Shown: positions 5,484 through 64,000 of the stretch, in pieces | How the letters are laid out: each line of letters begins with the position of its first letter | Position numbering within the stretch: the first letter of the stretch is position 1 | Origin: a virus | Taxonomy: Duplodnaviria > Heunggongvirae > Uroviricota > Caudoviricetes > Crassvirales | Length of the DNA stretch: 64,000 nucleotides | Virus record (IMG/VR): IMGVR_UViG_3300035495_000018 | Location: 24,104-88,103 of that record | Reading direction: 5' to 3' (one strand) | The notes under the pieces: generated by a model | Told to the model about the DNA's origin: nothing | The model's database searches: none | Seen by the model: only the letters and a program-made list of their open reading frames with translations | Position numbers and translations under genes: made by a program

Positions 5484-5574
5484 TGCGAATAAGTTTATTT
5501 TTTGTGCAAAGGTAAGTAAATTTCTCCACACCACCAAGTGGTTTATGGATAATTTTAGATTGATTTAAGAAAAA

Positions 5575-5602
5575 ATAGAGGGAGATGTTACTCTCCCCCT
5601 AA
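5575..5602 (-). terminator. Rho-independent terminator (hairpin GGGAGAG..CTCTCCC followed by T-run on minus strand)
   Basis: Plus strand gagggagatgttactctccccc; minus sense gives stem plus tctattttttctt. Confidence 0.5.
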
Positions 5603-5715
5603 TTGATATTTACATGTCAGTTATATCATCATGATAATTGCAGTCAGGGTCATTGGTATCACCTACCTCACAATCCAATAACTCACAATAACCATTGCTA
5701 AAGAACTGACATCCT

Positions 5716-23788: not shown

Positions 23789-24721
23789 TTAGTTCCAAGG
23801 AGAAGAACTTTCAGATGTGCTGAAAGGAAGTTCATCAGTAGGAGCTGCCTCTGTGGTAGGAGTAAATGTAGTTGCTTCTACAGAATACTCATGTACAGGA
23901 GCTGCTGAATACTCAGTATTAAGAGTCCTACCATTAGCTGCTGCATTTTGAATCATCTCTTGAAGCTCTTTATCAAGAGTGCTATAGTTATTAGCTGAGT
24001 TTCGCAAGAATTTCCTTGTATATACAGCTTGATAAAGTCTTCCAGTTTCTGCATCAGTTCTTACACCAAGCATAATTTTAACCTTATTAGTAGGTTGGAA
24101 GCCAAGTGCATCTTTAATCTCAGAGAAGTCTCCTTTGAAGATTTTGTCAAGGCTATCAAACCTACATTCACATTCCTCAGGTTTAACTTTAGTATTGGGG
24201 ACCATTTTCTTAAGATTGGCATCCCATGTAGTTACACTAGGAATACAAAGATAAGCCTTTACAAACTCCATGAGTTCTTCTTCTCCTACATAAGCAGGCC
24301 TATAGTCCTTATCAATGTCAGCAGGACCATTAGAATAAACAGGAATAGCTTTAGCTGCAAGCTCTTCAGCTGTAGCCCATGCAGTCCTACCATACTTATC
24401 AATTACTTGAGTTTTACCTGATGTAGCACCTACTCTAGGCCTATTTTGCAAGAACAAAGCCATAGTTACAAGAGGCATTTCAAAGCCTACTTTCTCTGTG
24501 TCAGGTTGGAATACAATTTGAATTCTTGCATTACCATACTCATTACCATCACTATCTGTTACTTTACCAAGATAATTAGGAGCTTCATCCAATGTAGTAT
24601 TAAACAAAGACTCATGTTCTGCTTTATCAGGATTTACTGCTTTAATAAATACAGGAGCTACACCTACATATCTTTTAAACTCCTGAGCTTCTTTTGATTC
24701 TGAACCTTTAGCAATTGCCAT
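23789..24721 (-). CDS. Putative ssDNA-binding protein
   Basis: 310 aa, acidic C-terminal tail ending DELPF like the SSB DDDIPF tail; position in replication module. Confidence 0.35.
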   Translation of the reverse strand: MAIAKGSESKEAQEFKRYVGVAPVFIKAVNPDKAEHESLFNTTLDEAPNYLGKVTDSDGNEYGNARIQIVFQPDTEKVGFEMPLVTMALFLQNRPRVGATSGKTQVIDKYGRTAWATAEELAAKAIPVYSNGPADIDKDYRPAYVGEEELMEFVKAYLCIPSVTTWDANLKKMVPNTKVKPEECECRFDSLDKIFKGDFSEIKDALGFQPTNKVKIMLGVRTDAETGRLYQAVYTRKFLRNSANNYSTLDKELQEMIQNAAANGRTLNTEYSAAPVHEYSVEATTFTPTTEAAPTDELPFSTSESSSPWN

Positions 24722-33479: not shown

Positions 33480-33494
33480 ATAGATAGTCACTAA

Positions 33495-33568
33495 ATTCAC
33501 ATGATGGACTCGAACCATCTACTCTAAGCACCAAAAAACTTATGCTCTACCTAATGAGCTAATGTTAT
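33495..33568 (-). tRNA. Atypical tRNA: canonical D-arm (TA GCTC ATTAGGTA GAGC) and T-arm, but 8-10-nt anticodon loop (TTTTTTGGTG) and 5/7 acceptor pairs
   Basis: Manual fold. Confidence 0.4.
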
Positions 33569-33604
33569 TAGTATTGTAAGTGACTGTATATAACAAATGG
33601 CATG

Positions 33605-33724
33605 CGGGGATTATTGGATTTGAACCAATAACTCTGGATTGTATCCCAGAATAAATTGTTAAGTTGCTTTTGTAAGTGACCTTAGCCACTCAAACAATCT
33701 GCCTTTCCATAAGGCTGAATCCCC
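33605..33724 (-). ncRNA. Overlong (120 nt) tRNA-like RNA: perfect acceptor GGGGATT/AATCCCC, D-arm GCCT-TATGGAA-AGGC, T-arm ATTGG TTCAAAT CCAAT, ~47-nt insertion containing hairpin TCTGG(gatacaa)CCAGA and ACTTACAAA motif
   Basis: Manual fold. Confidence 0.45.
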
Positions 33725-33743
33725 TTGATTTAGACACTTGAAT

Positions 33744-33816
33744 TTTCCAATAGTGGGGTCGAACCACTGCCATTAAAATTACAAATTTTACACTCTAACC
33801 TCTGAGTTAATCGGAT
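33744..33816 (-). tRNA. tRNA-Thr (anticodon TGT)
   Basis: Canonical cloverleaf: D-stem ACTC/GAGT, anticodon stem TAAAA/TTTTA, loop TTTGTAA, T-arm AGTGG TTCGACC CCACT; A1-A72 mismatch. Confidence 0.7.
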
Positions 33817-33958
33817 AATTAGTATTGTAAGTGTCTATAGTGAATGTAGGAGGTATTTCTCCTCCTACACCCTGTATGATACTTGGTTTACGAATTTATA
33901 GTCTATGATTTACGAAGTATGTATGAGTATAAATTGTAAGTATCATTAGTATTATGTA

Positions 33959-37555: not shown

Positions 37556-37592
37556 GCTAGAGGGACTCGAACCATCATCTAGAGTAAATATG
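37556..37592 (-). other. tRNA 3'-half fragment (T-arm + 3' acceptor strand, no D or anticodon arm)
   Basis: Minus sense GATGG TTCGAGT CCCTC TAGCTCC A directly downstream of tRNA-Arg(CCT). Confidence 0.4.
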
Positions 37593-37593
37593 G

Positions 37594-37665
37594 TGGTTGA
37601 TGGGAGACTCGAACTCCCAACCTGAAAATTAGGAATTTCCTGCTCTGTCCATTGAGCTAATCAAC
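37594..37665 (-). tRNA. tRNA-Arg (anticodon CCT)
   Basis: Acceptor GGTTGAT/ATCAACC, D GCTC-AATGGACA-GAGC, anticodon loop TTCCTAA, T-arm GGGAG TTCGAGT CTCCC. Confidence 0.75.
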
Positions 37666-38154
37666 CTTTGCTTTACCATAGTAAGTACTTTTTCCTCTTG
37701 GAGCATTCTTGTTCCTTGAACCAAAGTTCTCAGTTAATGAATGACAATTAGGACACAGTAGTTGTAAGTTATTCTCTATATTATTCTCAGAGTTTCCATC
37801 TATATGATGTACTTGAAGTGGTGTTTTATTTGTATATGGGTTTATTTCTCCCCATCCACAAATTTGACACTTGCCATTATATTTTTCCATTAGATAATTT
37901 CTTACAAAAGTACTACAAGAATAGCCTTTTGTGCCTGAAATTTCACCTAACTTCCATTTTCTAATGGTCTCTTTCCTTTTGTAAGAGAACTCACACTCTT
38001 TGTTACAAAACTTTCCATTACTAGAATATCTGGGATGGAAAGACTTGCCACAATTTTCACATACTACTGTCCCATTTCTAAATTCTTTGTTGGCTTTCAT
38101 ACGATTTATTTTTAATCGTACAAAGTTACAAAGAATATTTGAAATATACAACAA
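37657..38154 (-). CDS. HNH endonuclease
   Basis: VHHIDGN...NLQLLCPNCH plus N-terminal CxxC pairs. Confidence 0.7.
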   Translation of the reverse strand: MLYISNILCNFVRLKINRMKANKEFRNGTVVCENCGKSFHPRYSSNGKFCNKECEFSYKRKETIRKWKLGEISGTKGYSCSTFVRNYLMEKYNGKCQICGWGEINPYTNKTPLQVHHIDGNSENNIENNLQLLCPNCHSLTENFGSRNKNAPRGKSTYYGKAKVD

Positions 38155-38329
38155 ACTAGCTATTTATTTACTCTTGTTCTATCCCTTGAACTATGGGAGC
38201 ATAAAAAACAGTTTAGAATTAACTACTAAAGGGTCTTGAAATCCCAATATTCGGTAAATTCAAAGCACAAACCTTAATATCATCAGTTTATACTTACTTC
38301 ACTGTTTTGAATGACTAGTCTGATATTGG

Positions 38330-38403
38330 TGATTCAGATGAGACTCGAACTCATGACCCACAGTTTAGAAGACTGTTGCTCTGTCCAACTGAGCTACTGA
38401 ACC
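38330..38403 (-). tRNA. tRNA-Arg (anticodon TCT)
   Basis: Acceptor GGTTCAG/CTGAATC, D GCTC-AGTTGGACA-GAGC, anticodon stem ACAGT/ACTGT, loop CTTCTAA, T-arm ATGAG TTCGAGT CTCAT. Confidence 0.75.
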
Positions 38404-42736: not shown

Positions 42737-42808
42737 TGCTGCTTGGTGTAAAGGCTAACACACCAGTTTTTGGCACTGGGTTTAGAAGTTCGAGTCTTCT
42801 AGCAGCAA
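42737..42808 (+). tRNA. tRNA-Gln (TTG)
   Basis: Manual cloverleaf: acceptor TGCTGCT/AGCAGCA, anticodon loop TTTTGGC, T-arm AGAAG TTCGAGT CTTCT. Confidence 0.7.
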
Positions 42809-42816
42809 CACTGAAT

Positions 42817-42888
42817 GCCTCCTTAGTATAAGGGATAATGCAATAGTCTTCTAAACTATCAATCTAGGTTCGAGTCCTAGAGGAGGTA
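42817..42888 (+). tRNA. tRNA-Arg (TCT)
   Basis: Anticodon stem ATAGT/ACTAT, loop CTTCTAA, T-arm CTAGG TTCGAGT CCTAG. Confidence 0.7.
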
Positions 42889-42974
42889 CTTGCGGAGATG
42901 CGTTTTGTTTTTGTTTGTTGTTTAAAGTGATTGAAAGGAACCCACCCAACCTGTGAAGGTGCAAGTGGGTAAAT

Positions 42975-43047
42975 GGAGCCATCATCTAACAGGTTAGGAT
43001 GCCACTCTTTCAAGGTGGTAATCTGGGTTCAATCCCCAGTGGCTCTA
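42975..43047 (+). tRNA. tRNA-Glu (TTC)
   Basis: Anticodon stem CCACT/GGTGG, loop CTTTCAA, T-arm CTGGG TTCAATC CCCAG. Confidence 0.7.
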
Positions 43048-43056
43048 CTAGATATT

Positions 43057-43127
43057 GGGTGTGTGGTGTAATGGTTAGCATACAACACTGTCACTGTTGA
43101 GGTTGGGGTTCAAGTCCCCCACATCCA
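43057..43127 (+). tRNA. tRNA-Asp (GTC); T-stem appears to be 4 bp
   Basis: Anticodon stem CAACA/TGTTG, loop CTGTCAC, T-loop TTCAAGT. Confidence 0.6.
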
Positions 43128-43132
43128 GCTAT

Positions 43133-43219
43133 GGAAGTTTGGCAGAGTGGCTTAATGCACTGGTCTTGAAAACCAGCAGCCTGTAACAGGGTTCATGGGT
43201 TCAAATCCCATAGCTTCCT
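43133..43219 (+). tRNA. tRNA-Ser (TGA), type II
   Basis: Anticodon stem CTGGT/ACCAG, loop CTTGAAA, long variable arm, T-arm ATGGG TTCAAAT CCCAT. Confidence 0.7.
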
Positions 43220-43224
43220 CAAAT

Positions 43225-43307
43225 GGAGGGTAAAGCAGTGAGGTACTGCATCTGCCTGCTAAGCATGATGTACCTTAGGGTATTTGGTTCGAGTCTAATG
43301 CCCTCCT
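43225..43307 (+). tRNA. tRNA-Ser (GCT), type II (fold less certain)
   Basis: Acceptor GGAGGGT/GCCCTCC, loop CTGCTAA, variable arm TACC-ttag-GGTA. Confidence 0.5.
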
Positions 43308-43317
43308 CAATATATTT

Positions 43318-43390
43318 AGGGAAGTGGTCTAGTGGTTATGATGCATGCTTTGGGAGCATGAGGTCGAGAGTTCGAGTCTCTCTTTCCCTA
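43318..43390 (+). tRNA. tRNA-Pro (TGG)
   Basis: Anticodon stem CATGC/GCATG, loop TTTGGGA, T-arm GAGAG TTCGAGT CTCTC. Confidence 0.7.
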
Positions 43391-43396
43391 CTATAT

Positions 43397-43469
43397 GGGC
43401 TTTTAGTTAAGATGGCTATAACAATAGATTTGCACTCTATAGTCCTGGGTTCGAGTCCCAGTTAGTCCA
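43397..43469 (+). tRNA. tRNA-Ala (TGC); U-U mismatches at acceptor 6-67 and 7-66
   Basis: D GTTA/TAAC, anticodon stem ATAGA/TCTAT, loop TTTGCAC, T-arm CTGGG TTCGAGT CCCAG. Confidence 0.6.
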
Positions 43470-43477
43470 CTAAATAT

Positions 43478-43551
43478 TCCTTCTTAGCTCAGTTGGTTAG
43501 AGCAGTTGACTGTTAATCAAAAGGTCGTAGGTTCAAGTCCTACAGGGGGAG
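43478..43551 (+). tRNA. tRNA-Asn (GTT)
   Basis: D GCTC-AGTTGGTTA-GAGC, loop CTGTTAA, T-arm GTAGG TTCAAGT CCTAC. Confidence 0.7.
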
Positions 43552-43683
43552 CATAATAAAGAGAATAGTACTAGTGTAAGACTCAACGTAACTTAGTGGC
43601 TTTACATTGTATGTAAGTCTAGCCCACTTGAGTGTCGTATAACTCACCTTAGCTACAGAGGATGGTCAATGGTAGCATTATTC

Positions 43684-43754
43684 ATTGGTGTGGTATAATG
43701 GTATTACTCAGGTCTCCAAAACCTGCAATGGGAGTTCGATTCTCTCCACCTTTG
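43684..43754 (+). tRNA. tRNA-Trp (CCA); two U-U acceptor mismatches
   Basis: Anticodon stem CAGGT/ACCTG, loop CTCCAAA, T-arm GGGAG TTCGATT CTCTC. Confidence 0.55.
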
Positions 43755-43760
43755 CTTATT

Positions 43761-43834
43761 GGGCAGTTAACTCAGTTGGTTAGAGTACATGACTGATATT
43801 CATGAGGTCCTAAGTTCGAGCCTTAGATTGCCCA
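43761..43834 (+). tRNA. tRNA-Ile (GAT)
   Basis: Acceptor GGGCAGT/ATTGCCC, anticodon stem CATGA/TCATG, loop CTGATAT, T-arm CTAAG TTCGAGC CTTAG. Confidence 0.75.
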
Positions 43835-43836
43835 CT

Positions 43837-43906
43837 GTGTTAGTAGCTTATAGGTAAAGTGCTTGACTGTGAATCAAGAGAAGAGGGTTCGAGTCCCCCT
43901 AACACC
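43837..43906 (+). tRNA. tRNA-His (GTG)
   Basis: Acceptor GTGTTAG/CTAACAC, D GCTT/AAGT, anticodon stem CTTGA/TCAAG, loop CTGTGAA. Confidence 0.65.
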
Positions 43907-43914
43907 CTATATAT

Positions 43915-43988
43915 TGCTGAGTAGCTTAGACAGTAGAAGCACCTGCCTTATAAGCAGGAGATAGTGGGAGCATTACCCATCTCAGCTA
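43915..43988 (+). tRNA. tRNA-like gene with anticodon TAT (Ile-AUA-type) and non-canonical T-arm GTGGG AGCATTA CCCAT
   Basis: Canonical acceptor/D/anticodon geometry (D GCTT/AAGC, anticodon stem CCTGC/GCAGG, loop CTTATAA) but T-loop lacks TTC. Confidence 0.5.
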
Positions 43989-44248
43989 CTACTCTATGAT
44001 AATACAATTTCTAAATTATATTATTATGAAAAGAGCATGTAAATTACTGAAGAAGGCAGCTAAATGGTACTTTAAACAGATGGAAAGTGCATACTTCTGT
44101 CCTTCGGGAATGATTCCTATGAATTACATAGGATAATTCCCACCCTTCTTTTTGTGATAGTATATAATGTAGAAACATAAGATATAAGAGGATGCTGGTA
44201 GCCACTTCCTAGGAGGAACCTCTATAAAAACAGCTGTAGGCTACACAA

Positions 44249-44321
44249 CTTCCTATAGCTCAATTGGCAGAGCTTCTGACTCTTAATCAGAGGGTTCAGG
44301 GTTCAAGTCCCTGTGGGAAGA
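44249..44321 (+). tRNA. tRNA-Lys (CTT)
   Basis: Acceptor CTTCCTA/TGGGAAG, loop CTCTTAA, T-arm CAGGG TTCAAGT CCCTG. Confidence 0.7.
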
Positions 44322-44328
44322 CTATTAT

Positions 44329-44400
44329 TCTCCTATAGCTGAATGGTAAAGCTGCACTCTTTTAAAGTGAGGATTCTAGGTTCGAGTCCTAGTGGGAGAA
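44329..44400 (+). tRNA. tRNA-Lys (TTT)
   Basis: Loop CTTTTAA, T-arm CTAGG TTCGAGT CCTAG. Confidence 0.65.
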
Positions 44401-44409
44401 CTATTATAT

Positions 44410-44491
44410 GGGAATACTTTAATGCGGAGAATTAGTGCAGTCTGTAAAACTGTTGCCTCTGGCTAAATTGGTTCGACTCCATTTATTCCCA
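44410..44491 (+). tRNA. tRNA-Tyr (GTA), type II
   Basis: Perfect acceptor GGGAATA/TATTCCC, anticodon stem GCAGT/ACTGT, loop CTGTAAA, long variable arm. Confidence 0.65.
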
Positions 44492-44499
44492 CATTGATT

Positions 44500-44573
44500 G
44501 GAGACATAGCAAAGATGGTCTATGCGGAGGACTGAAAATCCTAAGATGTGAGGTTCGATACCCACTGTCTCCA
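44500..44573 (+). tRNA. tRNA-Phe (GAA); T-stem has a bulged A
   Basis: Perfect acceptor GGAGACA/TGTCTCC, loop CTGAAAA. Confidence 0.6.
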
Positions 44574-44577
44574 CTAT

Positions 44578-44665
44578 GCCCAAGTGGTGGAATAGGTAGA
44601 CACAATAGCCTTAGAAGCTATGTCGAAGTAATAGTAGAGTGTGGGTTCGAGTCCCACCTTGGGTA
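44578..44665 (+). tRNA. tRNA-Leu (TAG), type II
   Basis: Anticodon stem ATAGC/GCTAT, loop CTTAGAA, long variable arm, T-arm GTGGG TTCGAGT CCCAC. Confidence 0.7.
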
Positions 44666-44667
44666 CT

Positions 44668-45009
44668 ATGGAAAAGAAGTTTATATTCTATTTCAATGGG
44701 ATGATAGTCAAAGCTTCTATATCAGAATACAATACTAATATAGAAGATTCTTATAGATTCAAGAACATATCCAGTATGAGGGATATTCTGAGAGTGATAA
44801 GAGCTGAATCCCTAAATGATTCTACTGAGAGAGCAATAAGCAAAAGGTCTCTATTCAGTATGGTTAATGAATGGAGGGTACATAATTTATTGTATGCCCT
44901 TGGCATTAAGAGAGATAGGGTTAAAAGTGTTGATTTAAATATAGGTCAACCTTGGTATATTAAGGCAGTGTACACCCTTCTATCACCATTTTATTTGCAC
45001 TTTGTGTGA
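44668..45009 (+). CDS. hypothetical protein (start moved downstream of tRNA-Leu)
   Basis: ORF-track start 44641 lies inside the tRNA; in-frame ATG at 44668 (MEKKF...). Confidence 0.4.
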   Translation: MEKKFIFYFNGMIVKASISEYNTNIEDSYRFKNISSMRDILRVIRAESLNDSTERAISKRSLFSMVNEWRVHNLLYALGIKRDRVKSVDLNIGQPWYIKAVYTLLSPFYLHFV

Positions 45010-45026
45010 AAATACTTATCAATTTA

Positions 45027-45058
45027 TTTGGTAGTATGAAATATTTTACTTAACTTTG
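45027..45058 (+). promoter_or_regulatory. Bacteroidota-type promoter (-33 TTTG 45027-45030; -7 TAacTTTG 45051-45058)
   Basis: Consensus spacing, 22 nt upstream of 45080 ATG. Confidence 0.45.
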
Positions 45059-45079
45059 TAGCATCAAAAGAAAACAAGT

Positions 45080-45277
45080 ATGGCGAAGAATTTATCAAGC
45101 ATGGAGAAGAAGTGGCAGGCTGAAGAGGATGCTAGGACAATGGCTAGATACCAAGAGATAATGTCCGACTCTAAAAGAAAATCAGCAGCCATTAAGCAAG
45201 CCAGAACAGAAGCTTCAGCATTAGAGAAGAGGGCTAATGCAATGAAACTAGCTGCTGGTGGAAAGCTAAAGAAATAA
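45080..45277 (+). CDS. Small hypothetical protein (K/A-rich)
   Basis: 65-aa ORF behind promoter. Confidence 0.45.
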   Translation: MAKNLSSMEKKWQAEEDARTMARYQEIMSDSKRKSAAIKQARTEASALEKRANAMKLAAGGKLKK

Positions 45278-45285
45278 TAAGTGAT

Positions 45286-45358
45286 GCTTCCTTAGTTCAA
45301 TTGGCAGAGCAACTGTTTTGTAATCAGTCTGTTGTAAGTTCGAGTCTTACAGGAAGCT
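45286..45358 (+). tRNA. tRNA-Thr (TGT)
   Basis: Perfect acceptor GCTTCCT/AGGAAGC, loop TTTGTAA, T-arm GTAAG TTCGAGT CTTAC. Confidence 0.75.
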
Positions 45359-45363
45359 CTAAT

Positions 45364-45435
45364 GCAGGATTAGTATAAAGGTTATTATGCCAGTATTCCA
45401 AACTGGATATGAGGGTCCAATTCCCTCATCCTGCT
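45364..45435 (+). tRNA. tRNA-Gly (TCC)
   Basis: Perfect acceptor GCAGGAT/ATCCTGC, anticodon stem CCAGT/ACTGG, loop ATTCCAA, T-arm GAGGG TCCAATT CCCTC. Confidence 0.7.
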
Positions 45436-45441
45436 CAATTA

Positions 45442-54619: not shown

Positions 54620-57600
54620 ATGGCAAGTCTAAATTCAGACAAAGGGGCTATTACATCTCTTGACCAATCCTGGGAAGGCCATAGCCACTATGAGGTTGAG
54701 CAGTTTCTCAAGGACCAAATAGAAACCCTGGGTGGTCAGGTTGTAAGGTCTAAGATTTCTCTTGCAATTGATGGTAATTCTATCAAGTCATTCCTTAATG
54801 GAGCAAGCAATGTATCCTTCGGATACACTGTAACCTACACTAAGGATAATGTAGATATGACCTCTTGTAAGATTAGAATCTCTGTTGGAAGCAAGGTTGT
54901 ATACAATGGAGATACAGTAGCTGGAAGTTTAGCACAGTCTCCTAACATTGCATCATACCTTAATGCTCTGAGTGACTCAGTAATCTATGTTACTCTTAGA
55001 GCTTATGATATTGATGATGAAGGTAATGAAACAGCTTATAGTACTGCTAGAATTACCTATAATAAGCAGACTGCAACAACTGTAAATACAGTTGCTCTAG
55101 GTACTGTAGACCCTGCTACATTAACATTCAATATTAACTTCTCTACAGATGAAGCTACCCTATTTGCAGAATTCTATGATGCTAGTGGTGTAACTCTGCT
55201 ATCTACTGTTAAGAGAACCTTCACTTCTAAAGGTGATGCTACAGTACAGGTTCCTACATTAACTAAGGGTGCCCATGTAGTTAAGGCTTATCTAGTATTG
55301 AATGACATTGAGGAGACAAGGGGTAACACAGCAAGTACTACTATTATCAGTACTAATGGTGCTAATGATGGAGACATCTTTATAGTTGTAGGTACTGTAG
55401 ATGATGCAGTTGTAAATGACTATGTAGATATTCAGTTCTCTGCTTATGTTTACAGAACAAGCAATGTAGGTGATGAAGTAATTCCTATAGCTATGGAAGA
55501 GCTGTCAGGAAATACTTATGTAACAAAGGCTGTCAGAAATGCAGCTAATGGTGCTAGACAAACATGGCACTATCTTGTTAAGTCAGACCTTGTAAATCTA
55601 AGAATCGGTGTTCCTCAGGTTGATAGCAATGGTGACCTTGTGTACAGTAGAACTGGTGTTCTTCAGTTTGAAGAGGGTGATGGTAACCCTGTACAGTTCT
55701 CATTTGAAGCAACACAATCTACTATTAACTGGGTTACTCCAGAGAACTCAGTAGCATATTTCACTGCACAAAATAAGTCAAACAATGACTTTGATATTGG
55801 CACATGGGAGAACAGTGGTAAGAGCTTTGCCTTTGAAGATGTTCAGTGGAATAGTGCTGGTAGTGGCTGGAAGGACATTAAATTCAAATCAGGCTCACCT
55901 GTTGATGATTCAACTACTACTGACAAGTATGATAATACTTCGACTGCCCTTCACCTTGTAGGTACTTCTAAAGCCTATATAAAGGACTTCTATCCATTCT
56001 ATGATACTACTGTAGCTGCAACTCTGTCAGGTGGTGGTATCCTTGCTAAGGGTAGAACTCTGAAGATGTCCTTTATGATAAGGAATGTAAGTAATCCAGA
56101 TGAAAGAATCATTGATTGCTTTGATGACCAAAGCAAGACAGGTTTCTATGTAACTGGTAATGCTATTTACATTAACCTTGGAGAGGAGCTTGTAAGTCTT
56201 CCTGAGGAAGGTCAAGCTAAGGCAGGTCACAATGCTAGAAGGTTCTCTGCTGATACCAAGTTGGATTTGACTATTACAGTACAGCCTTACTATGAGAATG
56301 GTGCTGAAACTAAGCATGAACTTAGATACTATATCAATGGTGAGATTGCTGGTTTTGCTGTGCTTGAAGCTACAAGCTTGTCACAGACTAATCCTACTCT
56401 ACTTAAGTTTGGTGGTAGTGGTGCTATCCTAGACCTGTTTGATGTTAGATACTATGATAAGGCTCTTAGTTCATTTAAAGTTCTTCAGATGAGAACTATG
56501 GACCTTGATAGTTCAGCAGAGATTGCAGAGACATTTAATAAGAACAACTTCTATGAAACTGACTCTGATGGTTCTCCTGTAATCACTCTTTCAGAAGCTA
56601 TTGAATATGGTAAGTATCTAGCTTCACAAGGAATCACTGACTTTGCAGTCTGGGCTTGTACAAACCTATGTAATGGTGAAGCCTACATTGGTAATACAAA
56701 AACTCACTCTACTAGAGCTGAATCCTTCTACCTATATAAGTTTAAGCAGGATGCTGATGGTAAGGGTATAATTGACCCTGACTACACTATCTTTGTAGAA
56801 GCTATGGGTATTGATACAGATAAGGCTGAATCTTACCTTAGGCTTAGAAGACAGGGTACCTCTACTGCTTCTTCTACTAAGGGTAATATCAGACTTGATG
56901 TTAGAAATACTTGTAGAATCCATAAGTACAATGCCTCTACAGGCAAGTTCTACGAATGGGATGGTGACCCAACTCACTGCTATGAAGTTAAAAAGAAGGC
57001 TGCTATTTGGCAGATTCCTAATGATGATACTATTGCTTGTCAGCTTTTGACTTGTAAGAAAAACCCTAATGAATCTACACAAGCAAGAAACCTACCTACT
57101 GCTAAGTGGTATGAAGACTGCTGTAGATACCTCGCTACTATAAATACAGGTACTTCCAGTGCTCCTGTTTATAAGTATGAAGACTGTCTTACAATGCCTC
57201 AGAGAAAAGAGCTTCAGAGTATCATTGAGAATAACCCTGACCTAAGTAGAACTGACCAAATAGCTAAGATTAAAACAAGACAATGTGTGAATGGTATTCC
57301 TAGCCTTGGCTTTGAGATTGGTTACTCTGATGATGATTCTACTAAGAATGACCCTCTTTCAAATACAGCTACCTTTGGTGGTCAGTTTGACCTTATCACT
57401 GATAAATCAAACATGACAGTGTTTGGATTTGGTGGTTACAATACTCAAGATGCTGATGGCAATGTTACTTGGCATAGCAATGAAGATGATGAGGACTTCT
57501 CTGCTGAATGGAGACAGAATGATTCTGCTGTATGTAACTTCCTTACTGCTGACCTAAGTACTCTCTCTGGTGATGGTAGTTATGCTGCAAAGGCTATGGA

Positions 57601-59323
57601 ATACAGATACCCTGTAGATTATCCTACTGAGGATGTTGTAACTCCTGTTTCCCCTGCTGCTAACTCTGATACATGGAAGGAGCTTTATCCTAATGGTACT
57701 AGAGGTATGGCACTTGATGGTCCTATTCAAAGGCTATTTGACTTTGTTAGAACTTGTGCCCTTGATAAGGCTGATGTAGCTAATGAAGGTACTTACTATA
57801 GTGGTGGTGAAGTTCAGAACTACACAAAGCCAGGCCAAATACCTATTGGTGAAGTTACTCTTGGTGAAGCTAATCTTAATCCTTCTGCCTACACTTGGAA
57901 GACAGATAATGTAACCAACAGAGTTGAGAAGTTCCATACTGAACTTGGTCACTATGTAACTGTCAATCAAATTCTGTTCAATGGTCTTGCAATCATTGCT
58001 GCTCTAATGTGTGACCAGGATACTAAGAACCAATTCTTCACTCACTTTACTGGTGAGTATGATGAAAATGGTAAGCAAATCCTTAGACTTCTAGGTTATG
58101 ACTTTGACTCATCTTGGGGTATTGATAATGATAACTTCTTTAGATTCCTCTATACAGTTCTATATGATGATGGTCTATATGATGGTAGAGGTATTGACCC
58201 AGTAACAAAGGAAGAGAAAGGCCCTATGTTCTGGAAACTTATCTTCAAAGCATTCAAGAGTGAAATGGCTACAATAGCTAATCTTCTTTACTCTGGATTC
58301 CTAAGTAAGGATGCTCTCTTGAAGTACATGGAGACTAATCAGGTTAATCTGTACAATGCTCTTATCTACAATGCTAACTCTGAGTACTCTTATACATCAA
58401 GTGCTGCTGACTACCTAAAGACCCATGGTTCTGCTAAAGAGCATACTAGATGGTTTATTGAAGGTAGAATGCACTTCTTGAGTGGTAGACTTAGTGTAGG
58501 TTCTACAACTGTTGGTGGTGACTTTGCAACAAATGCAGCTAACTTCAACCTTGCAATCTTCTCTAATGAGCTTATAGCAGAGTATCCTCTGAATGCAGCT
58601 AATAGAGGTAAGGATGATTGGGCTATTGAAGTTCAGGGCTATGAAAGAACAGCAGCTTGTTTAAGATATGGTGCTAGTGGTTTCTTCCCTGTAGTTGAGG
58701 TCAATGTAAACACTACATATGATTCAAACTATAAGCCAATAAATGTTGAATATGAGACTGCTGTAGTCAAGGCTGACTCTACTATTGGTTCATCTGCTGG
58801 TGATAATAGATTGGCTATATTTGGTGGTAAACACTTAAAGTCTGTTAAGGGCTTGTCAAGATGGTATATTGCTAATGTAATGGACTGGGGTGATTTAACC
58901 AATATTGAGGAACTTGAGATTGGTAGTACTGAGAACTTGGGTACTGAAGAGAATCCTGAGTACTATAGAAATCCTAACCTTACTTCACTTGCACTATCTA
59001 AGACCTTTGGTTCTTGCAAGAAGTTCAATACTGCTGGTTGTCCTAGCCTTCAGGGTAACTTCAGCTTGAGCAGCTTCCCAGTACTTGAGGAGTTTGAAGG
59101 TATTAGAATGGATGGTGTAACTTCAATTACACTTCCTATTAGTAATAGCTTGAAGAAGATTAGCTATCCTAAGAACCTTACTTCTTGGACAGTAGACAAT
59201 AAGCCTAATCTTGAAAGTATCACCTTTGAAGGTACAGACTCATTGACTTCTATCAGTGTTACTAATTCAAGTCAGTATGCAGCAAGTTATGCAGTAACTC
59301 TACTTAATAATATATTAGTATGA
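54620..59323 (+). CDS. Large virion/tail protein (1,567 aa) with leucine-rich-repeat-like C-terminus
   Basis: Long ORF; C-terminal NLTSL..L..N.. repeats; stop overlaps next gene start (ATGA). Confidence 0.5.
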   Translation: MASLNSDKGAITSLDQSWEGHSHYEVEQFLKDQIETLGGQVVRSKISLAIDGNSIKSFLNGASNVSFGYTVTYTKDNVDMTSCKIRISVGSKVVYNGDTVAGSLAQSPNIASYLNALSDSVIYVTLRAYDIDDEGNETAYSTARITYNKQTATTVNTVALGTVDPATLTFNINFSTDEATLFAEFYDASGVTLLSTVKRTFTSKGDATVQVPTLTKGAHVVKAYLVLNDIEETRGNTASTTIISTNGANDGDIFIVVGTVDDAVVNDYVDIQFSAYVYRTSNVGDEVIPIAMEELSGNTYVTKAVRNAANGARQTWHYLVKSDLVNLRIGVPQVDSNGDLVYSRTGVLQFEEGDGNPVQFSFEATQSTINWVTPENSVAYFTAQNKSNNDFDIGTWENSGKSFAFEDVQWNSAGSGWKDIKFKSGSPVDDSTTTDKYDNTSTALHLVGTSKAYIKDFYPFYDTTVAATLSGGGILAKGRTLKMSFMIRNVSNPDERIIDCFDDQSKTGFYVTGNAIYINLGEELVSLPEEGQAKAGHNARRFSADTKLDLTITVQPYYENGAETKHELRYYINGEIAGFAVLEATSLSQTNPTLLKFGGSGAILDLFDVRYYDKALSSFKVLQMRTMDLDSSAEIAETFNKNNFYETDSDGSPVITLSEAIEYGKYLASQGITDFAVWACTNLCNGEAYIGNTKTHSTRAESFYLYKFKQDADGKGIIDPDYTIFVEAMGIDTDKAESYLRLRRQGTSTASSTKGNIRLDVRNTCRIHKYNASTGKFYEWDGDPTHCYEVKKKAAIWQIPNDDTIACQLLTCKKNPNESTQARNLPTAKWYEDCCRYLATINTGTSSAPVYKYEDCLTMPQRKELQSIIENNPDLSRTDQIAKIKTRQCVNGIPSLGFEIGYSDDDSTKNDPLSNTATFGGQFDLITDKSNMTVFGFGGYNTQDADGNVTWHSNEDDEDFSAEWRQNDSAVCNFLTADLSTLSGDGSYAAKAMEYRYPVDYPTEDVVTPVSPAANSDTWKELYPNGTRGMALDGPIQRLFDFVRTCALDKADVANEGTYYSGGEVQNYTKPGQIPIGEVTLGEANLNPSAYTWKTDNVTNRVEKFHTELGHYVTVNQILFNGLAIIAALMCDQDTKNQFFTHFTGEYDENGKQILRLLGYDFDSSWGIDNDNFFRFLYTVLYDDGLYDGRGIDPVTKEEKGPMFWKLIFKAFKSEMATIANLLYSGFLSKDALLKYMETNQVNLYNALIYNANSEYSYTSSAADYLKTHGSAKEHTRWFIEGRMHFLSGRLSVGSTTVGGDFATNAANFNLAIFSNELIAEYPLNAANRGKDDWAIEVQGYERTAACLRYGASGFFPVVEVNVNTTYDSNYKPINVEYETAVVKADSTIGSSAGDNRLAIFGGKHLKSVKGLSRWYIANVMDWGDLTNIEELEIGSTENLGTEENPEYYRNPNLTSLALSKTFGSCKKFNTAGCPSLQGNFSLSSFPVLEEFEGIRMDGVTSITLPISNSLKKISYPKNLTSWTVDNKPNLESITFEGTDSLTSISVTNSSQYAASYAVTLLNNILV

Positions 59324-61443
59324 TACAAAATTTTACATGGAACAATGGGACCCTAGAAAGTCCCATTGTCCTTACAACCCAACAAATTTCTACACTGATT
59401 TCAGCAGGTAACAATCCTGACATTAATACTAGTGTGAAAGGAGTTATCAAGAGCTCCACAGGTATCTATAAGTACCTTAAGTATGCTCTTACAAAGTTGT
59501 ATGGTAGTGACCTAACAGTACTTGGAGAGGAAGTTGCAGACTCCTTCCAAATATCTGCTCCTACAAGCAACCTTCTTGAAGGTAACTCTATGACACTTAA
59601 TGTCTCTAGTTCCTCTGGTATGACTGCTGAGGATTTGCAGTACAAGCTTATCTTTGGTACAGTGAAGACTGATAATGTACTTGATGAAGATACTATTAAG
59701 TCTAGAATCTCTATTAATAATGGTATTCTTCAAATATCTCAGGCACAAGAGAATGGTAGCTGGGAGATTCCTGTTACTGTAAAGGCTTGTCCACTATATG
59801 AGGATATTGACACTACAAACAACTTCGTAAAGTCTGAGGCCATTCTTTGTAGAGCTGTAGCTATGACAAGTTTCTCTGCACAAGCAGAAGAATCTATTTC
59901 AATTAACTCAAGTGCAGATATATCTTATATTACTGCTCCTAGCAATACAACTAAGCTTGGTACAGCTAAGATTGTCTATGAGATTACAGAGGGTGATGGC
60001 TCATTCCTTGATGGTAGATTCTATGCTTCTGAGAAGCCAGGAAATGTTACTATTAAGGTTACTTGTACTCTAGCTGGTGGTGCTAGTTTTACATCAACTG
60101 TCAATATAAAGGTTAAGAACTCTACACAATCTACTATTACTATTTGGAATGGTGGTGTTGATGGAGGTATCTCTGATACTAAGTCAATGGTAACTGGAGA
60201 TGTTGTAGTAGACCCTACAACTGCTGCTATCCACACTAATTCAGACAATGTAATCTTATGGATTAGAAAGAACTCTCACCTGTATCTATGTAAGTACATG
60301 GGTAGAGACATAGGTATGAAGATTAAGCAGCTTGATGACAATGATAGAAGGAAATACTCTGATGGAACTGATGCTTCTAAAGCTATTGCTGGTGCTCCTG
60401 GTTCTGACGGTATTATCATGGATGTCATGCTTAAGTTACCTACATTCTACTACAAGTGTGTTACTAATGTTGATAACCCAAGTGCAGTAGATGTAATCTT
60501 CTCAGCAGGTAATGATGATGCTAATAGTTACTATGAATGGGATACTAATAAGCTTATTGGTGTTTATGAAGGTGTAATCTATAGAGATGGTGTACCTCTT
60601 AATCCTACATCAAGTACTAGCTATGCATCAGGTGATGTTATGTATAGTATCTCTGGTGTAACTCCTACAGCTAACTACTCACAAGCTTCATTTAAGCAAG
60701 CTGCTAGAGCTAGAAATACTGTACCTGTTGGTACAGTAGCTACAGATGGTTTCCAAATTGTAGACTATGAAACTCATGTTATCATGGCTCTGCTATACTA
60801 TGGTTACTATGGTGGTTACAACATCAACTGTCAGGAAGTAATTGGTTATGGTACTAGTAGCTATCCTAAGGTAGCTGGTTACTATACAGATGAACTTGGT
60901 ATGAATGATACATTCTCTAAGAACATGGGTGGTACTGGTGATTCAGGTAGTATTAACTTCTGGGGTCTAGAGAACTGGTGGGGTGACCTATATGAATGGG
61001 TTGATAATCTAATAACTGCTACTAGCACTGGTATTGTTAGAATCAACAACTGGCAAGGTAATCCTGTTAGGTATCTACAAGTTCCAACTGACTATCTGAG
61101 TAAAGACCAATGTATATCTAAGATGATTTTCAATGAGGCATCATTGAAGGTAGATAGCAGTGGTAATCCTACTGGAGAGTATACTAACTATCCTGACCTA
61201 CTGTTCAAAGAACTAAGTGGTTCTACAGACTTCACAAAGTACTATGCTGATGCTGGCTGTGTGAATGCGTACTCTGGTTATGTGGCGTGTCGTAGCAGTT
61301 ATGGTTCTGATGCTAATGGCGGTGTTGGTCGGCTTTATCTGAATTATGCTTCTTCTGCTACTTATGGCCATGTTGGCTCTCGGTTGGTTTTTTGTGGTAC
61401 AGTAACAGATGTAACTGGAACAGCTGAAGCTGATAGCTTCTAA
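59320..61443 (+). CDS. DGR target protein: tail-fibre/receptor-binding-like protein with Big_2 domain and C-terminal C-type-lectin fold bearing the variable repeat
   Basis: Big_2-like segment (GNVTIKVTCTLAGGASFTSTVNIKV); CLec motif GLENWWGDLYEWVD; VR at the C-terminus. Confidence 0.8.
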   Translation: MIQNFTWNNGTLESPIVLTTQQISTLISAGNNPDINTSVKGVIKSSTGIYKYLKYALTKLYGSDLTVLGEEVADSFQISAPTSNLLEGNSMTLNVSSSSGMTAEDLQYKLIFGTVKTDNVLDEDTIKSRISINNGILQISQAQENGSWEIPVTVKACPLYEDIDTTNNFVKSEAILCRAVAMTSFSAQAEESISINSSADISYITAPSNTTKLGTAKIVYEITEGDGSFLDGRFYASEKPGNVTIKVTCTLAGGASFTSTVNIKVKNSTQSTITIWNGGVDGGISDTKSMVTGDVVVDPTTAAIHTNSDNVILWIRKNSHLYLCKYMGRDIGMKIKQLDDNDRRKYSDGTDASKAIAGAPGSDGIIMDVMLKLPTFYYKCVTNVDNPSAVDVIFSAGNDDANSYYEWDTNKLIGVYEGVIYRDGVPLNPTSSTSYASGDVMYSISGVTPTANYSQASFKQAARARNTVPVGTVATDGFQIVDYETHVIMALLYYGYYGGYNINCQEVIGYGTSSYPKVAGYYTDELGMNDTFSKNMGGTGDSGSINFWGLENWWGDLYEWVDNLITATSTGIVRINNWQGNPVRYLQVPTDYLSKDQCISKMIFNEASLKVDSSGNPTGEYTNYPDLLFKELSGSTDFTKYYADAGCVNAYSGYVACRSSYGSDANGGVGRLYLNYASSATYGHVGSRLVFCGTVTDVTGTAEADSF
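61245..61395 (+). repeat. DGR variable repeat (VR)
   Basis: ~150-nt near-repeat of the TR; ~30 differences, nearly all at positions where the TR has A. Confidence 0.85.
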
Positions 61444-61463
61444 ATTTAGTGAGTGATAATTAA

Positions 61464-61492
61464 AATTGTATTGAGTACTCCCCTGTAAAAGG
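61464..61492 (+). other. Perfect 10-bp hairpin GTACTCCCCC-tgtaaaa-GGGGGAGTAC between target gene and TR
   Basis: Read from sequence; no T-run follows. Confidence 0.5.
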
Positions 61493-61590
61493 GGGAGTAC
61501 ACTTTACGAGGTATATAAGTGGGTGCTAGTTGGTAGATTTGGTATTAGATTTACCAAAGTTATTACCAGAATTGTTTTCTACACCTATTA

Positions 61591-61742
61591 GTGAAAAAAC
61601 TAGCTATGTGAATGCAGACTCTAGTAATGTAGCGAATCGTAGCAATAATAGTTCTAATGCTAATAGCAGTGTTAGTCAGCTTAATCTGAATAATACTTCT
61701 TCTAATACTAATGGCAATAATGGCTCTCAGTTAGTTTTATGT
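61591..61742 (+). repeat. DGR template repeat (TR)
   Basis: Adenine/AAT-codon-rich copy of the VR (spurious Asn-rich ORF 61530..61745 reads through it). Confidence 0.85.
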
Positions 61743-61891
61743 TGAAATGATTTTTGATATTTTTTGAACTTTAAATTTTGGCTAACTTCTTATATACCCT
61801 GCCTCTTGGCAAAAGATTACTTATAGGTTAGTAAGTACACTTAAGTGTGTGACGAACCCCTTTAATTTCAACAAAAATATAGATATGATAA

Positions 61892-63121
61892 ATGAAGACT
61901 TATAGTAACTTGTTTGACAAAATATGCACGATTGAAAACTTCCAAGCTGCATATCAGAATGCTATAAAAGGCAAGATGCACTATAGGGAAGTAATAGAGA
62001 TAGAAAAGAACAGAGATGCCTACTTGGAGGCTCTACTGGAAGAAGTAAAGTCCAAGAAATATAAGGTCTCAGAGTATACAGTGTTCAACCTCTTCACAGG
62101 TCATAAGATGAGAGAAATCTTTAAGCTACCTATGAGAGATAGAATAGTACAACATGCTATTATGATATACTGTGAGCCAATATTCAGAGAGACATTCATT
62201 CTAGATACCTATGCTTCTATTAAGACTAGAGGTATTCACTTAGGGTTACAAAGAGTGAAGAAAGCTCTAAAGAAGTACCACTACAAGTACTGCTTGAAAC
62301 TGGATATACACAAGTGCTATCCTTCACTAGATAAGGAAATATTAAAGAAGAAACTAGCAAGGAAGTTTACAGACCCTGACTTACTAGACCTGCTATTCAA
62401 GATAGTAGATAGTTGTGAGAAGGGTGTTCCTATTGGAAACTATACATCTCAATATTTCAACAACTTCTACTTCAGTGATTTTGACCACTGGATAAAAGAG
62501 GTTAAGGGTATTAAAGCCTACTTCAGATATTGTGATGATATGGTTATACTGAGCAATAGTAAAGAAGAGCTTCATGCTATGCTAGAAGAAATAATGGGAA
62601 AGATGAAAGAACTCAATGTTTCACTCAAAGAGAACTATCAGCTGTTTCCTATTGATTCTAGAGGTATAAGCTTCCTTGGTTATATAATTACAGAGGACTG
62701 CATCAAGGTTAGAAAGAACACTAAGAAGAACTTTGTACACAAGGTATCAAAGATGAACTTTTCCAACCCCTCAGCTAAAGACATTAATGTACTTGGTTCA
62801 TATTGGGGTATCTTAGTTCATGCTGATTGTAGACACCTATGGAAATCATACATGGGTTGTAGTGCATTCAAATCCTTCATGAAGAGATACAAGTGTTCAG
62901 CTAGAGATGTTCTTAATAAACCTATCAGGGTGCTAAGGGCTTACAGAAAGTATTCATCTGGTAAATGGTATACTGTTATGGAAGCTCTTGTTGGAAATCT
63001 GTATGCCACAATTAAAACTACAAGTAAGTATTTAGCAGTAGCTCTAAATGCTGTACTTCCATTTGATACATATATTATAGCTACTCAAAGAGGTTATAGA
63101 TTTAATACAATTGTAATATGA
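61892..63121 (+). CDS. DGR reverse transcriptase
   Basis: RT motifs: LKLDIHKCYPSLD (domain 3), YxDD box FRYCDDMVIL; 409 aa; immediately downstream of the TR. Confidence 0.85.
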   Translation: MKTYSNLFDKICTIENFQAAYQNAIKGKMHYREVIEIEKNRDAYLEALLEEVKSKKYKVSEYTVFNLFTGHKMREIFKLPMRDRIVQHAIMIYCEPIFRETFILDTYASIKTRGIHLGLQRVKKALKKYHYKYCLKLDIHKCYPSLDKEILKKKLARKFTDPDLLDLLFKIVDSCEKGVPIGNYTSQYFNNFYFSDFDHWIKEVKGIKAYFRYCDDMVILSNSKEELHAMLEEIMGKMKELNVSLKENYQLFPIDSRGISFLGYIITEDCIKVRKNTKKNFVHKVSKMNFSNPSAKDINVLGSYWGILVHADCRHLWKSYMGCSAFKSFMKRYKCSARDVLNKPIRVLRAYRKYSSGKWYTVMEALVGNLYATIKTTSKYLAVALNAVLPFDTYIIATQRGYRFNTIVI

Positions 63122-63651
63122 ATTGGACAAAAGGTAACACAGAATGGCTGAAGTCTGTAGAGTGTGTAAACACTAAGAAGGGTATTTACTATGTAAATAT
63201 GGCTCCTACTGAATACCACAGTGAGGATGAAGAATCCTCTAATGTGAGGTATGTTAACTTCAGGATTGACCACCTTCCTTCAACTAAGGAACTTAAAGAC
63301 ATGCTAGTCTCAGTTCAGAATGACTATGACTCAAGTGATGAGGTCAAGGGTTTCTATGTTGGTGGTAGTATTGTATGGCTTGATAAGTCTACCAGACTTG
63401 GTCTAATCAACAGTCTTACTATACAGAAGGAAGAGGGCAATACAGAAAGTACTCTATGGCTTGATGGAGTGTCTTACACAGTAAACATTGATGCTGCTCT
63501 ACAGTTCTTGAAGACCCTTGAACTCTATGCTATTGAGTGCTATAATGTAACTCAACAGCACCTAGCAGAGATTGAGGCTCTAACAGACAAAGATGCAATT
63601 TTGACTTATGATGTAACTAAGGGATACCCAGACAGAATATCCTTTAGCTGA
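63118..63651 (+). CDS. hypothetical protein downstream of the RT
   Basis: 177-aa ORF, ATGA overlap with RT. Confidence 0.45.
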   Translation: MNWTKGNTEWLKSVECVNTKKGIYYVNMAPTEYHSEDEESSNVRYVNFRIDHLPSTKELKDMLVSVQNDYDSSDEVKGFYVGGSIVWLDKSTRLGLINSLTIQKEEGNTESTLWLDGVSYTVNIDAALQFLKTLELYAIECYNVTQQHLAEIEALTDKDAILTYDVTKGYPDRISFS

Positions 63652-63725
63652 GAGGGAAGAGGCTCTAGTTTCTAGGGCCTCTTTAGTTTTTGAATTATAC
63701 TAATATAACTAATTTCCCTATACAC

Positions 63726-63756
63726 TTGCAAATCTCGCATTTTTTACTTAATTTTG
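63726..63756 (+). promoter_or_regulatory. Bacteroidota-type promoter (-7 TAatTTTG 63749-63756)
   Basis: TTG-N20-TAATTTTG upstream of the 63775 ATG. Confidence 0.45.
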
Positions 63757-63774
63757 CAGCCAAAAAGATAGTTA

Positions 63775-64000
63775 TGAAAAATTTACTCATAGTAATAATT
63801 CTCTTTCTATGCGTGTCCTGTGCTTCTACAAAGTATGTAGAGGTGCCTATTGAAACTATTAAGACGGAGTATGTCAATAAGGTTGACTACAAAACTGATA
63901 GTATCTTCATCAGGGATAGCATAGACAGATATATCAAGGGAGATACAGTCTTCATAGAGAAGTACAAAACTACATACAAGTACAAAGATAGAGTTCTTAC
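63775..64000 (+). CDS. Lipoprotein (5' part; continues past window end)
   Basis: MKNLLIVIILFLCVSCAS signal peptide with lipobox. Confidence 0.5.

Follow-up and report, generated by a model that had tools for sequence, protein, structure and literature searches.

The 64,000-nucleotide (nt) stretch of DNA analysed here, positions 24,104 to 88,103 of the Crassvirales record IMGVR_UViG_3300035495_000018 in IMG/VR (hereafter the window), carries a diversity-generating retroelement (DGR) that targets a tail-fibre-like gene. With a probability of about 0.92, we read the locus as a functional DGR of the Avd-less type of Bacteroidota phages ('lineage 3'), residing in the tail-fibre operon of a crAss-like gut phage. 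An earlier note, made from the sequence alone, had already proposed a complete DGR acting on a tail-fibre-like gene, a proposal that the adenine pattern of the repeats, a DGR-type reverse transcriptase (RT), the variable-protein fold of the target and its virion context all support. The phage has a genome of ~104 kb (related contigs measure 104,290-104,352 bp), its TerL shares 82% identity with that of IAS virus (Crassvirales, Steigviridae), and its sequence places it as a crAss-like, Steigviridae-like phage.

Adenine-specific differences between the repeats

The evidence carrying this reading comes from two copies of one sequence. An ungapped local alignment of 61200-61450 with 61560-61780 pairs a variable repeat (VR) at the target gene's 3' end (61245-61402) with an intergenic template repeat (TR; 61592-61749) at a constant offset of 347, and a direct repeat search returned a single 143-nt core with that same spacing (61253-61395 and 61600-61742). 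When 61245-61395 is compared with 61592-61742 and the mismatches are classed by TR base, 33 of the 51 TR adenines are changed in the VR, against only one of the 100 other bases (34 mismatches; Fisher p = 3.8e-19). The earlier note had counted ~30 substitutions, nearly all of them at TR adenines, and the full tally agrees with it: mismatches concentrate at A and are not spread over the four bases. The sole non-A mismatch, a T at VR 61270 facing the G at TR 61617, is present just as it had been described, and the 1-nt indel then thought possible does not exist inside the repeat, the offset shifting only in the unrelated flanks. Such an adenine-only pattern cannot arise by selection or recombination.

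When every A of the TR was masked as N, the resulting pattern matched the VR and TR sites only (0 matches in 100 shuffles), which leaves these 64 kb with a single VR. A-masked TR patterns gave 0 matches in two scans of a metagenome contig collection, which would thus lack these samples, whilst in a viral contig collection they recovered two contigs already known and no further target. The TR had been described as rich in AAY codons, and in the frame of the target it indeed contains 14 AAT codons, and codon positions 1 and 2 account for 41 of the 45 adenines in its core. Variation between alleles spans 61259-61373, that is, 39 codons of which 25 are mutable, with ~1e23 possible peptides and no reachable stop codon; the only TR codon capable of becoming a stop, an AAA at TR 61596-61598 (VR 61249-61251), falls beyond the variable span. 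From the VR end to the target stop codon there are 48 nt, and the TR lies 150 nt 5' of the RT start. A 71-aa open reading frame (ORF) with a TTG start (61530-61745, + strand) also spans the TR, corresponds to the TR read in the VR frame, is rich in Asn and Ser, and was annotated as a gene by the Joint Genome Institute (JGI) in two related loci (L051 and L057); it is probably not a real gene. The parts of the cassette, with the support for each, are the following.

59320-61443, + strand: DGR target gene, 707 aa (ORF list, phrog_5302, AlphaFold2 model, Foldseek)
61245-61395, + strand: VR, inside the target gene's 3' end (alignment with the TR, repeat search)
61375-61395, + strand: VR 3' end resembling an initiation of mutagenic homing (IMH) site (three fixed VR/TR differences)
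61475-61500, + strand: hairpin, 30 nt past the target stop codon (DNA folding)
61534-61541, + strand: candidate Bacteroidota-type -7 promoter motif TAGATTTG, 5' of the TR (pattern TAnnTTTG)
61592-61742, + strand: TR, intergenic and AAT-rich (alignment with the VR)
61780-61891, + strand: spacer RNA element in the gap between TR and RT (conservation, Rfam, compensatory pairs)
61892-63121, + strand: DGR reverse transcriptase, 409 aa, with the RT core at residues 2-315 (RVT_1, phrog_1423, match to the Bordetella phage RT)
62894-63106, + strand: RT residues ~335-405, a C-terminal extension predicted as OB-like (oligonucleotide/oligosaccharide-binding; structure prediction)
63118-63651, + strand: ORF177 (ORF list; ATGA overlap with the RT stop codon)
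63656-63684: terminator-like site 3' of ORF177

Natural alleles point to recent activity

Related loci were fetched via the RT and via exact protein look-ups, and the assembled genomes were compared. One of them, L050 (JGI sample 3300043078), shows 19 differences from the window over 5180 bases, every one of them within VR 61289-61373 and at a TR-A site; with zero background substitutions in 5.2 kb, the last homing event would be younger than any other mutation between both genomes. In total, five VR alleles were found among nine near-identical genes, with 19-34 pairwise differences, 80-100% of them at TR-A sites. The TR is identical to that of the window in four loci (L002, L051, L056 and L057), and the TRs of L003 and L055 carry a single core change, T61700C, their 5' A-run also being one A longer. 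This T61700C is mirrored by a C at VR 61353 in L003, L054 and L055, which shows that a non-adenine marker was copied from TR to VR. Moreover, the 5' part of the L050 VR is that of the window, including the non-A T61270, and differences begin only at 61289, which argues for tracts anchored at the 3' side with a variable 5' stop. Two more divergent loci (L006 and L008, with RTs 57-61% identical) keep TR/VR pairs of their own, whose mismatches all fall at TR adenines (28/28 and 29/29). These near-identical genomes thus offer a natural experiment where adenine-only change, TR-to-VR copying and 3'-anchored tracts can be followed with no laboratory work and, judging from their sequences, the DGR has been recently active.

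Three independent ~104.3-kb assemblies of this phage, L050, L051 and L058 (JGI 3300043078, 3300043077 and 3300043104), are broken within a few hundred bases of the VR, either with a contig end 56 nt past the target stop codon or with a contig beginning some 300 nt ahead of it. Probably, either the VR/TR repeat or VR heterogeneity interrupts the assembly graph there.

A mosaic relative, L004 (IMGVR_UViG_3300035501_000145), is ~99% identical to the window over the gene for a 1567-aa protein that precedes the target, the first 57 nt of the target, the post-VR tail with the hairpin (61396-61520, 125 nt) and the block of spacer, RT and ORF177 (61782-63592), but only about 70% identical over the target body plus VR (59377-61395) and the TR region (61521-61781). 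The L004 VR follows L004's own TR. Target and TR have therefore been exchanged jointly on a constant RT/spacer backbone, which shows that both can be replaced at once, leaving RT, spacer and VR-proximal flank in place.

A reverse transcriptase of the DGR type

The 409-aa ORF matches RVT_1 of Pfam (E 1.3e-15) and phrog_1423 'reverse transcriptase' (E 1e-103), and the two RT motifs read by the earlier note, LKLDIHKCY and FRYCDDMVIL, are both in its translation. Its best solved relative is bRT of the Bordetella phage (8ub7_A, E 2.4e-34, residues 2-315), far ahead of the group II intron RT GsI-IIC (5.7e-9) and of a retron-type RT (1.6e-7). DGR RTs carry [ILV]GxxxSQ, where group II introns and retrons have QGxxxSP, together with YxDD. 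The ORF shows PMRDRIVQHA, IGNYTSQ and YCDD, which align with bRT as RDRIVQHA/KDRLVQHA, IGNYTSQ/IGSLTSQ and YCDD/YMDD, and both its relatives and its IGxxxSQ and YxDD motifs agree with the DGR assignment of that note. In this regard, Arg74 and Ile181 of bRT, studied by Handa et al., reportedly tune adenine mutagenesis; we take Arg74 to lie in KDRLVQHA and Ile181 in IGSLTSQ, the segments aligned with RDRIVQHA and IGNYTSQ of the window RT. By sequence, the 409-aa ORF is a DGR-type reverse transcriptase. The closest annotated phage RTs are those of crAss-like phages (39-49% identity). The ORF is intact with all its catalytic motifs, and the protein cluster is 100% identical on 8 contigs.

A different origin for these observations would be that VR diversity results from positive selection or recombination, the RT being an unrelated retroelement (a group II intron, retron or defence RT) beside a repeat. 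It could draw on the NCBIfam search, where the best RT model was group II intron RT/maturase, followed by Drt3a and retron, all of them far under their cut-offs in a database that holds no DGR RT model, and on the mosaic character of phage fibre genes, exemplified by the swapped target of L004. The adenine-only pattern (p = 4e-19, and 19/19 in L050), which includes synonymous sites, speaks against it, as do the position of bRT as by far the best solved relative, the Rfam scans, in which no RNA family of group II introns or retrons appeared, and the TR point change mirrored in VRs, and we regard this possibility as negligible.

Residues ~335-405 of the RT are predicted to form a small OB-like beta-barrel. 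C-terminal extensions were reported in about 20% of DGR RTs, with no domain found in them (Wu et al. 2018; PMC5758913), and a literature search returned no published work calling a DGR RT extension an OB fold.

The target is a predicted C-type-lectin-fold tail protein

Among the PHROGs, the 707-aa target corresponds to 5302 'tail protein' (E 7e-21), and a large protein collection yielded 277 homologues. An AlphaFold2 model of its residues 290-707, built from 117 sequences, reached a mean predicted local distance difference test (pLDDT) of 95.7, and the first Foldseek matches in the PDB were TaqVP (5vf4, E 1.6e-7), five variants of Mtd (1yu0-1yu4) and TvpA (2y3c). The C-type-lectin fold anticipated for the C-terminus is therefore recovered in the prediction, with DGR variable proteins as nearest structures, and the corresponding motif GLENWWGDLYEWV is present in the translation. 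On the basis of the model, residues ~290-707 adopt a C-type-lectin-like variable-protein fold, and the target would be a tail-fibre-like receptor-binding protein. The motif GLENWWGD is nearly invariant across the target family, and likewise G-S-R-L at the VR end (117 homologues), where the C-terminal residues of the VR read ...HVGSRLVFCG. Pfam and NCBIfam returned nothing for the target, neither Big_2 nor FGE-sulfatase even at E <= 10, so that the Big_2 domain which had been attributed to this protein finds no counterpart in Pfam, as is the case for every other domain. Moreover, the target sequence has no match in the PDB at E <= 1, and its only annotated phage match is in Bacteroides phage BT-TP2 (30% over 262 aa).

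The proposed place of the target in the tail/virion block is upheld by the phrog_5302 'tail protein' match and by its position 3' of portal, in the slot that in IAS virus is taken by large proteins annotated as phosphatase, internalin-like and transferase, which presumably are fibre-like as well. Directly 5' of the target lies the gene of the 1567-aa protein (54620-59323, + strand), which has no Pfam domain and overlaps the target start in an ATGA-type junction. A megablast search of 59320-63700 against 50,697 phage records gave zero matches.

Cis elements around the repeats

The 3' end of the VR, GGCTCTCGGTTGGTTTTTTGT, differs from its TR copy, GGCTCTCAGTTAGTTTTATGT, at three positions (61382, 61386 and 61392) that are constant in the five alleles. 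One of these differences is synonymous (TTA->TTG), so protein-level selection does not explain it. The contrast of CGGTTG in the VR with CAGTTA in the TR recurs in L004 and L006, and partially in L008 (CGTTTA in the TR, CGTTTG in the VR). From this pattern we infer that 61375-61395 and its TR counterpart are an IMH/IMH* pair.

Between VR and TR, a 'perfect 10-bp' hairpin had been described. The hairpin exists, but it has 9 Watson-Crick pairs, 10 if a T-G wobble is counted: GTACTCCCC (61475-61483) pairs with GGGGAGTAC (61492-61500) around an 8-nt loop, without a T tail. Its DNA fold has -9.2 kcal/mol (z = -2.7), and no terminator was called at the site. The stem persists in L004; in L005 its shape has changed by the loss of one apical pair and the gain of one basal pair. 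Its role could be that of a DGR target-site hairpin or of an atypical terminator.

The spacer between TR and RT contains a first hairpin (H1, 61800-61803 with 61808-61811, loop TCTT), the sequence UAGUAAG, a second hairpin (61836-61849) and GACGAA. Its segment 61780-61857 is 100% identical in L005, although this locus is only 78% identical overall. All 17 diverse loci compared, crAssphage LMMB and cr52_1 among them, have H1 paired, with compensatory changes at three of its four pairs, a level of pairing that shuffled or slid sequences never attained. RNAalifold, applied to a MAFFT alignment of 12 spacers, recovered H1 only; a possible second helix (about 61822-61827 with 61858-61865) appears by eye to be compensated in L005-L007, and the fold of the whole spacer alone is not significant (z = -1.0). 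In the Rfam scans, the window spacer matched RT-17 (RF03020) with an E value of 0.0026 over 61795-61901, and RT-18 (RF03021) more weakly. RT-17 occurs above its gathering threshold (43-70 bits) directly 5' of the RT in seven of 15 related DGR loci, so that these sequences tie RT-17 to Avd-less DGRs. Previously, RT-10 had been recognised as the spacer of BPP-1, the link of the other RT motifs with DGRs being speculation only (Weinberg et al. 2017; PMC5737381). The window copy shares with RT-17 and RT-18 its position directly 5' of the RT gene, a hairpin of the form CC-uu-GCCuCaUGGC-AAA and a U(G/A)GUA ... GAA core. Its sequence thus makes the spacer a divergent relative of RT-17/RT-18, a non-member by the Rfam criterion, and probably the priming or RT-binding part of the DGR RNA.

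The motif at 61534-61541 is a weak hint of a functional promoter, a chance match being plausible since the pattern TAnnTTTG has 41 matches on the + strand of the window. At the other end, the terminator-like site at 63656-63684, after ORF177, suggests a single transcript of TR, spacer, RT and ORF177.

Accessory functions and the fibre operon

Most DGRs carry an accessory protein, be it Avd, HRDC, MSL or CH1. In the window, 64 kb of a ~104-kb genome, neither avd nor any other gene lies between target and RT, as the earlier note had observed, which is the usual state of lineage 3 DGRs. A natural candidate for the missing function was ORF177, which would be a new accessory protein, translationally coupled to the RT, in place of Avd. 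Its start codon overlaps the RT stop codon (ATGA), both genes share one downstream terminator-like site, and in L005-L008, with RTs of 57-87% identity, ORF177 comes directly after the RT. Its genomic context elsewhere led us to reject this role and leaves it with a very slim chance: in L060 and L063, homologues of ORF177 come behind large fibre-like genes in a neighbourhood free of RTs, Avd-less DGR loci that are more distant lack an ORF177 homologue, and the protein itself shows a weak match to DUF4376. Gene context therefore makes ORF177 a member of the fibre operon, not an accessory of the DGR.

The L060 operon (ENA ERZ28653713, scaffold_60 of 251,610 bp, positions 1-5534) illustrates this arrangement, with genes for proteins of 1469 and 742 aa followed by the ORF177 homologue, without TR or RT. 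The 1469-aa protein shares 47% identity with the 1567-aa protein of the window, and the 742-aa protein 29% with residues 1-553 of the target, aligning only as far as the FWGLENW motif and with a different C-terminus. In the light of this RT-less operon, the TR-RT unit looks like an insertion between the fibre gene and ORF177, and such a DGR-free counterpart could serve to date it.

A second idea is that the roles of Avd, holding the DGR RNA on the RT and allowing primed cDNA synthesis, are taken over by the OB-like domain of the RT together with the RT-17-class spacer. If true, the two together would turn the RT into a mutagenic enzyme that needs no second protein. Some Avd-less relatives have RTs of only 317-355 aa, hence without the extension, which counts against this idea and means that the extension is no general Avd replacement; the same short RTs, found in the same Avd-less layout, weaken the OB-like extension as an obligatory substitute. 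On balance, we hold this proposal to be unlikely.

How the retroelement would work, and what weighs against it

The proposed course of diversification starts with transcription of an RNA comprising the TR and the structured, RT-17-like spacer, probably along with RT and ORF177. The RT would then make TR cDNA, misincorporating opposite template adenines, as the adenine-only pattern indirectly shows. Replacement of the VR would be anchored at the IMH-like 3' boundary (61375-61395) and end at a variable 5' position, as the alleles suggest. In this way, up to 25 codons would be recoded on the ligand-binding face of the C-type-lectin-fold domain and the receptor-binding protein would vary (~1e23 peptides, no stops) while its scaffold and the TR stay constant.

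Several observations weigh against a functional DGR of this kind. The same VR allele is present in five samples (the window, L051, L056, L057 and L058), so turnover is not fast, and non-A changes exist in VRs, at 61270 in the window, at 61266 and 61275 in L003 and at several positions in L054. Among the cis elements, the IMH assignment is based on five alleles, the hairpin, 79 nt away from the end of the VR, is missing in the more distant relatives L006 and L008, and the window spacer stays under the Rfam gathering thresholds (28.2 against 40.4 bits for RT-17, 25.5 against 41.3 bits for RT-18). Finally, with no Avd or other accessory gene found in the window, the mechanism of BPP-1 is not directly transferable; as this absence is usual in lineage 3, membership among DGRs is unaffected.

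The allele common to five samples, the non-A mismatch accumulated in the window VR and the missing accessory gene would also be expected of a DGR relic, where TR, VR and RT are still recognisable, homing has been lost and the VR differences survive as fossils of earlier activity. A relic fits poorly with an RT ORF that is intact in all catalytic motifs and identical as a protein on 8 contigs, with the 19 A-site changes of L050 free of any background substitution and with the conservation of the TR, the spacer and the IMH-like end, and we consider it improbable compared with a functional DGR.

Comparison with known DGRs

The nearest described systems are lineage 3 DGRs, with their target-VR-TR-RT layout without avd (Wu et al. 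2018; PMC5758913), and particularly that of crAssphage LMMB, formed by a target, about 400 nt and a 431-aa RT, also without avd, whose RT was assigned to lineage 3 (Morozova et al. 2020; PMC7290462). The window has the same order of target, VR (putative IMH), TR (putative IMH*) and RT on one strand, a tail-fibre-type target closing the structural block as in crAss-like phage DGRs, and the spacer hairpin (U)ACC-N-NNCC-UCUU-GGNN-AAA 5' of the RT found in these phages. Its VR ends in G-S-R-L, the CLec3-type 'SRLC/A' of lineage 3, a class given here by motif only and not by the authors' profiles, and it retains the SRL residues that are lost in genus I crAss phages (PMC7290462). The RT of LMMB also has a C-terminal extension, and the two extensions align by hhalign. 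On the other hand, the window RT is only 39% identical to that of LMMB (and <=49% to any annotated phage RT), the target has no detectable similarity to the LMMB tail-collar fibre and the host phage is Steigviridae-like, not of the Intestiviridae. Altogether, architecture, missing avd and VR motif fit lineage 3, and the RT lends indirect support, its closest annotated relatives being crAss-like phage RTs, with that of LMMB in lineage 3.

With BPP-1 (mtd-avd-TR-brt), the locus shares the adenine-specific signature of retrohoming, a homologous RT (E 2.4e-34), an Mtd-like C-type-lectin target whose 3' end holds the VR, itself closed by an IMH-like stretch that does not vary, a spacer that is structured and separates TR from RT, and a hairpin 3' of the VR. 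It differs from BPP-1 in the lack of avd, in an RT that is 81 aa longer, with an OB-like C-terminal domain that bRT lacks, in an AT-rich putative IMH instead of a GC-only block, in a hairpin 79 nt away from the VR end instead of adjacent to it, and in a spacer resembling RT-17/18 and not the RT-10 of BPP-1 (PMC5737381). A third comparison is with the Bacteroides-associated hankyphage (Bacteroides phage p00), one of whose proteins is 21% identical to the 1567-aa protein over 55% of its length. The hankyphage DGR diversifies a tail-fibre-type protein as well. Hankyphage, however, a temperate and transposable phage of ~40 kb, is built on another genome backbone, and neither its RT nor its target is close to those of the window, no hankyphage record being among the best 25 RT matches.

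Other features of the window

Two co-linear inverted-repeat segments flank the cassette from the target start to just past ORF177, namely 59311-59330 with 63688-63707 (18/20 complementary) and 59344-59359 with 63669-63684 (13/16). The inner right arm overlaps the terminator-like hairpin and the outer one falls in a promoter-like region; by a rough estimate, these repeats are probably due to chance. Downstream, 63749-64000 (+ strand) holds a -7-type motif, TAATTTTG, and then a small ORF beginning MKNLLIVIILFLCVSCAST, which looks like a lipoprotein signal and is perhaps a lysis or spanin-type gene as in IAS virus.

At the other end of the window, positions 1-5598 (- strand) are one open frame that continues past the window start and has at least 1866 codons; the ORF list leaves it out on that account, so that the region seems poor in ORFs. 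Stop-codon recoding in this stretch (1-5700) was rejected, a single giant minus-strand ORF being found there. The window also encodes 21 tRNA genes according to ARAGORN and 23 according to Rfam (42737-45436 on the + strand, 33494-33817 and 37591-38403 on the - strand), most of them in an array that lies between the early block and the late one and is similar to that of IAS virus; no suppressor tRNA was called. The tRNA at 33494-33569 (-) has a four-base anticodon 'tttg', type unknown, and 33605-33724 (-, 120 nt) gives a weak Rfam tRNA match (35.8 bits) with no ARAGORN call. These two could be artefacts, or else a tRNA with an 8-nt loop and one interrupted by an intron.

Implications for DGRs of crAss-like phages

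The locus is a new example of the already described Avd-less class of DGRs, not a new kind of system, and the general understanding of DGRs is unchanged by it. Since its RT is at most 49% identical to annotated phage RTs and its target has no close annotated relative, it is a new member of that class, and it adds a well-documented DGR to the Steigviridae-like branch. Moreover, it provides three leads for DGR specialists: the RT-17 motif of Rfam is assignable to the TR-RT spacer of Avd-less DGRs, target and TR can be replaced jointly, as L004 illustrates, and the unexplained extension carried by about 20% of DGR RTs (Wu et al. 2018) is here predicted to be an OB-like barrel.

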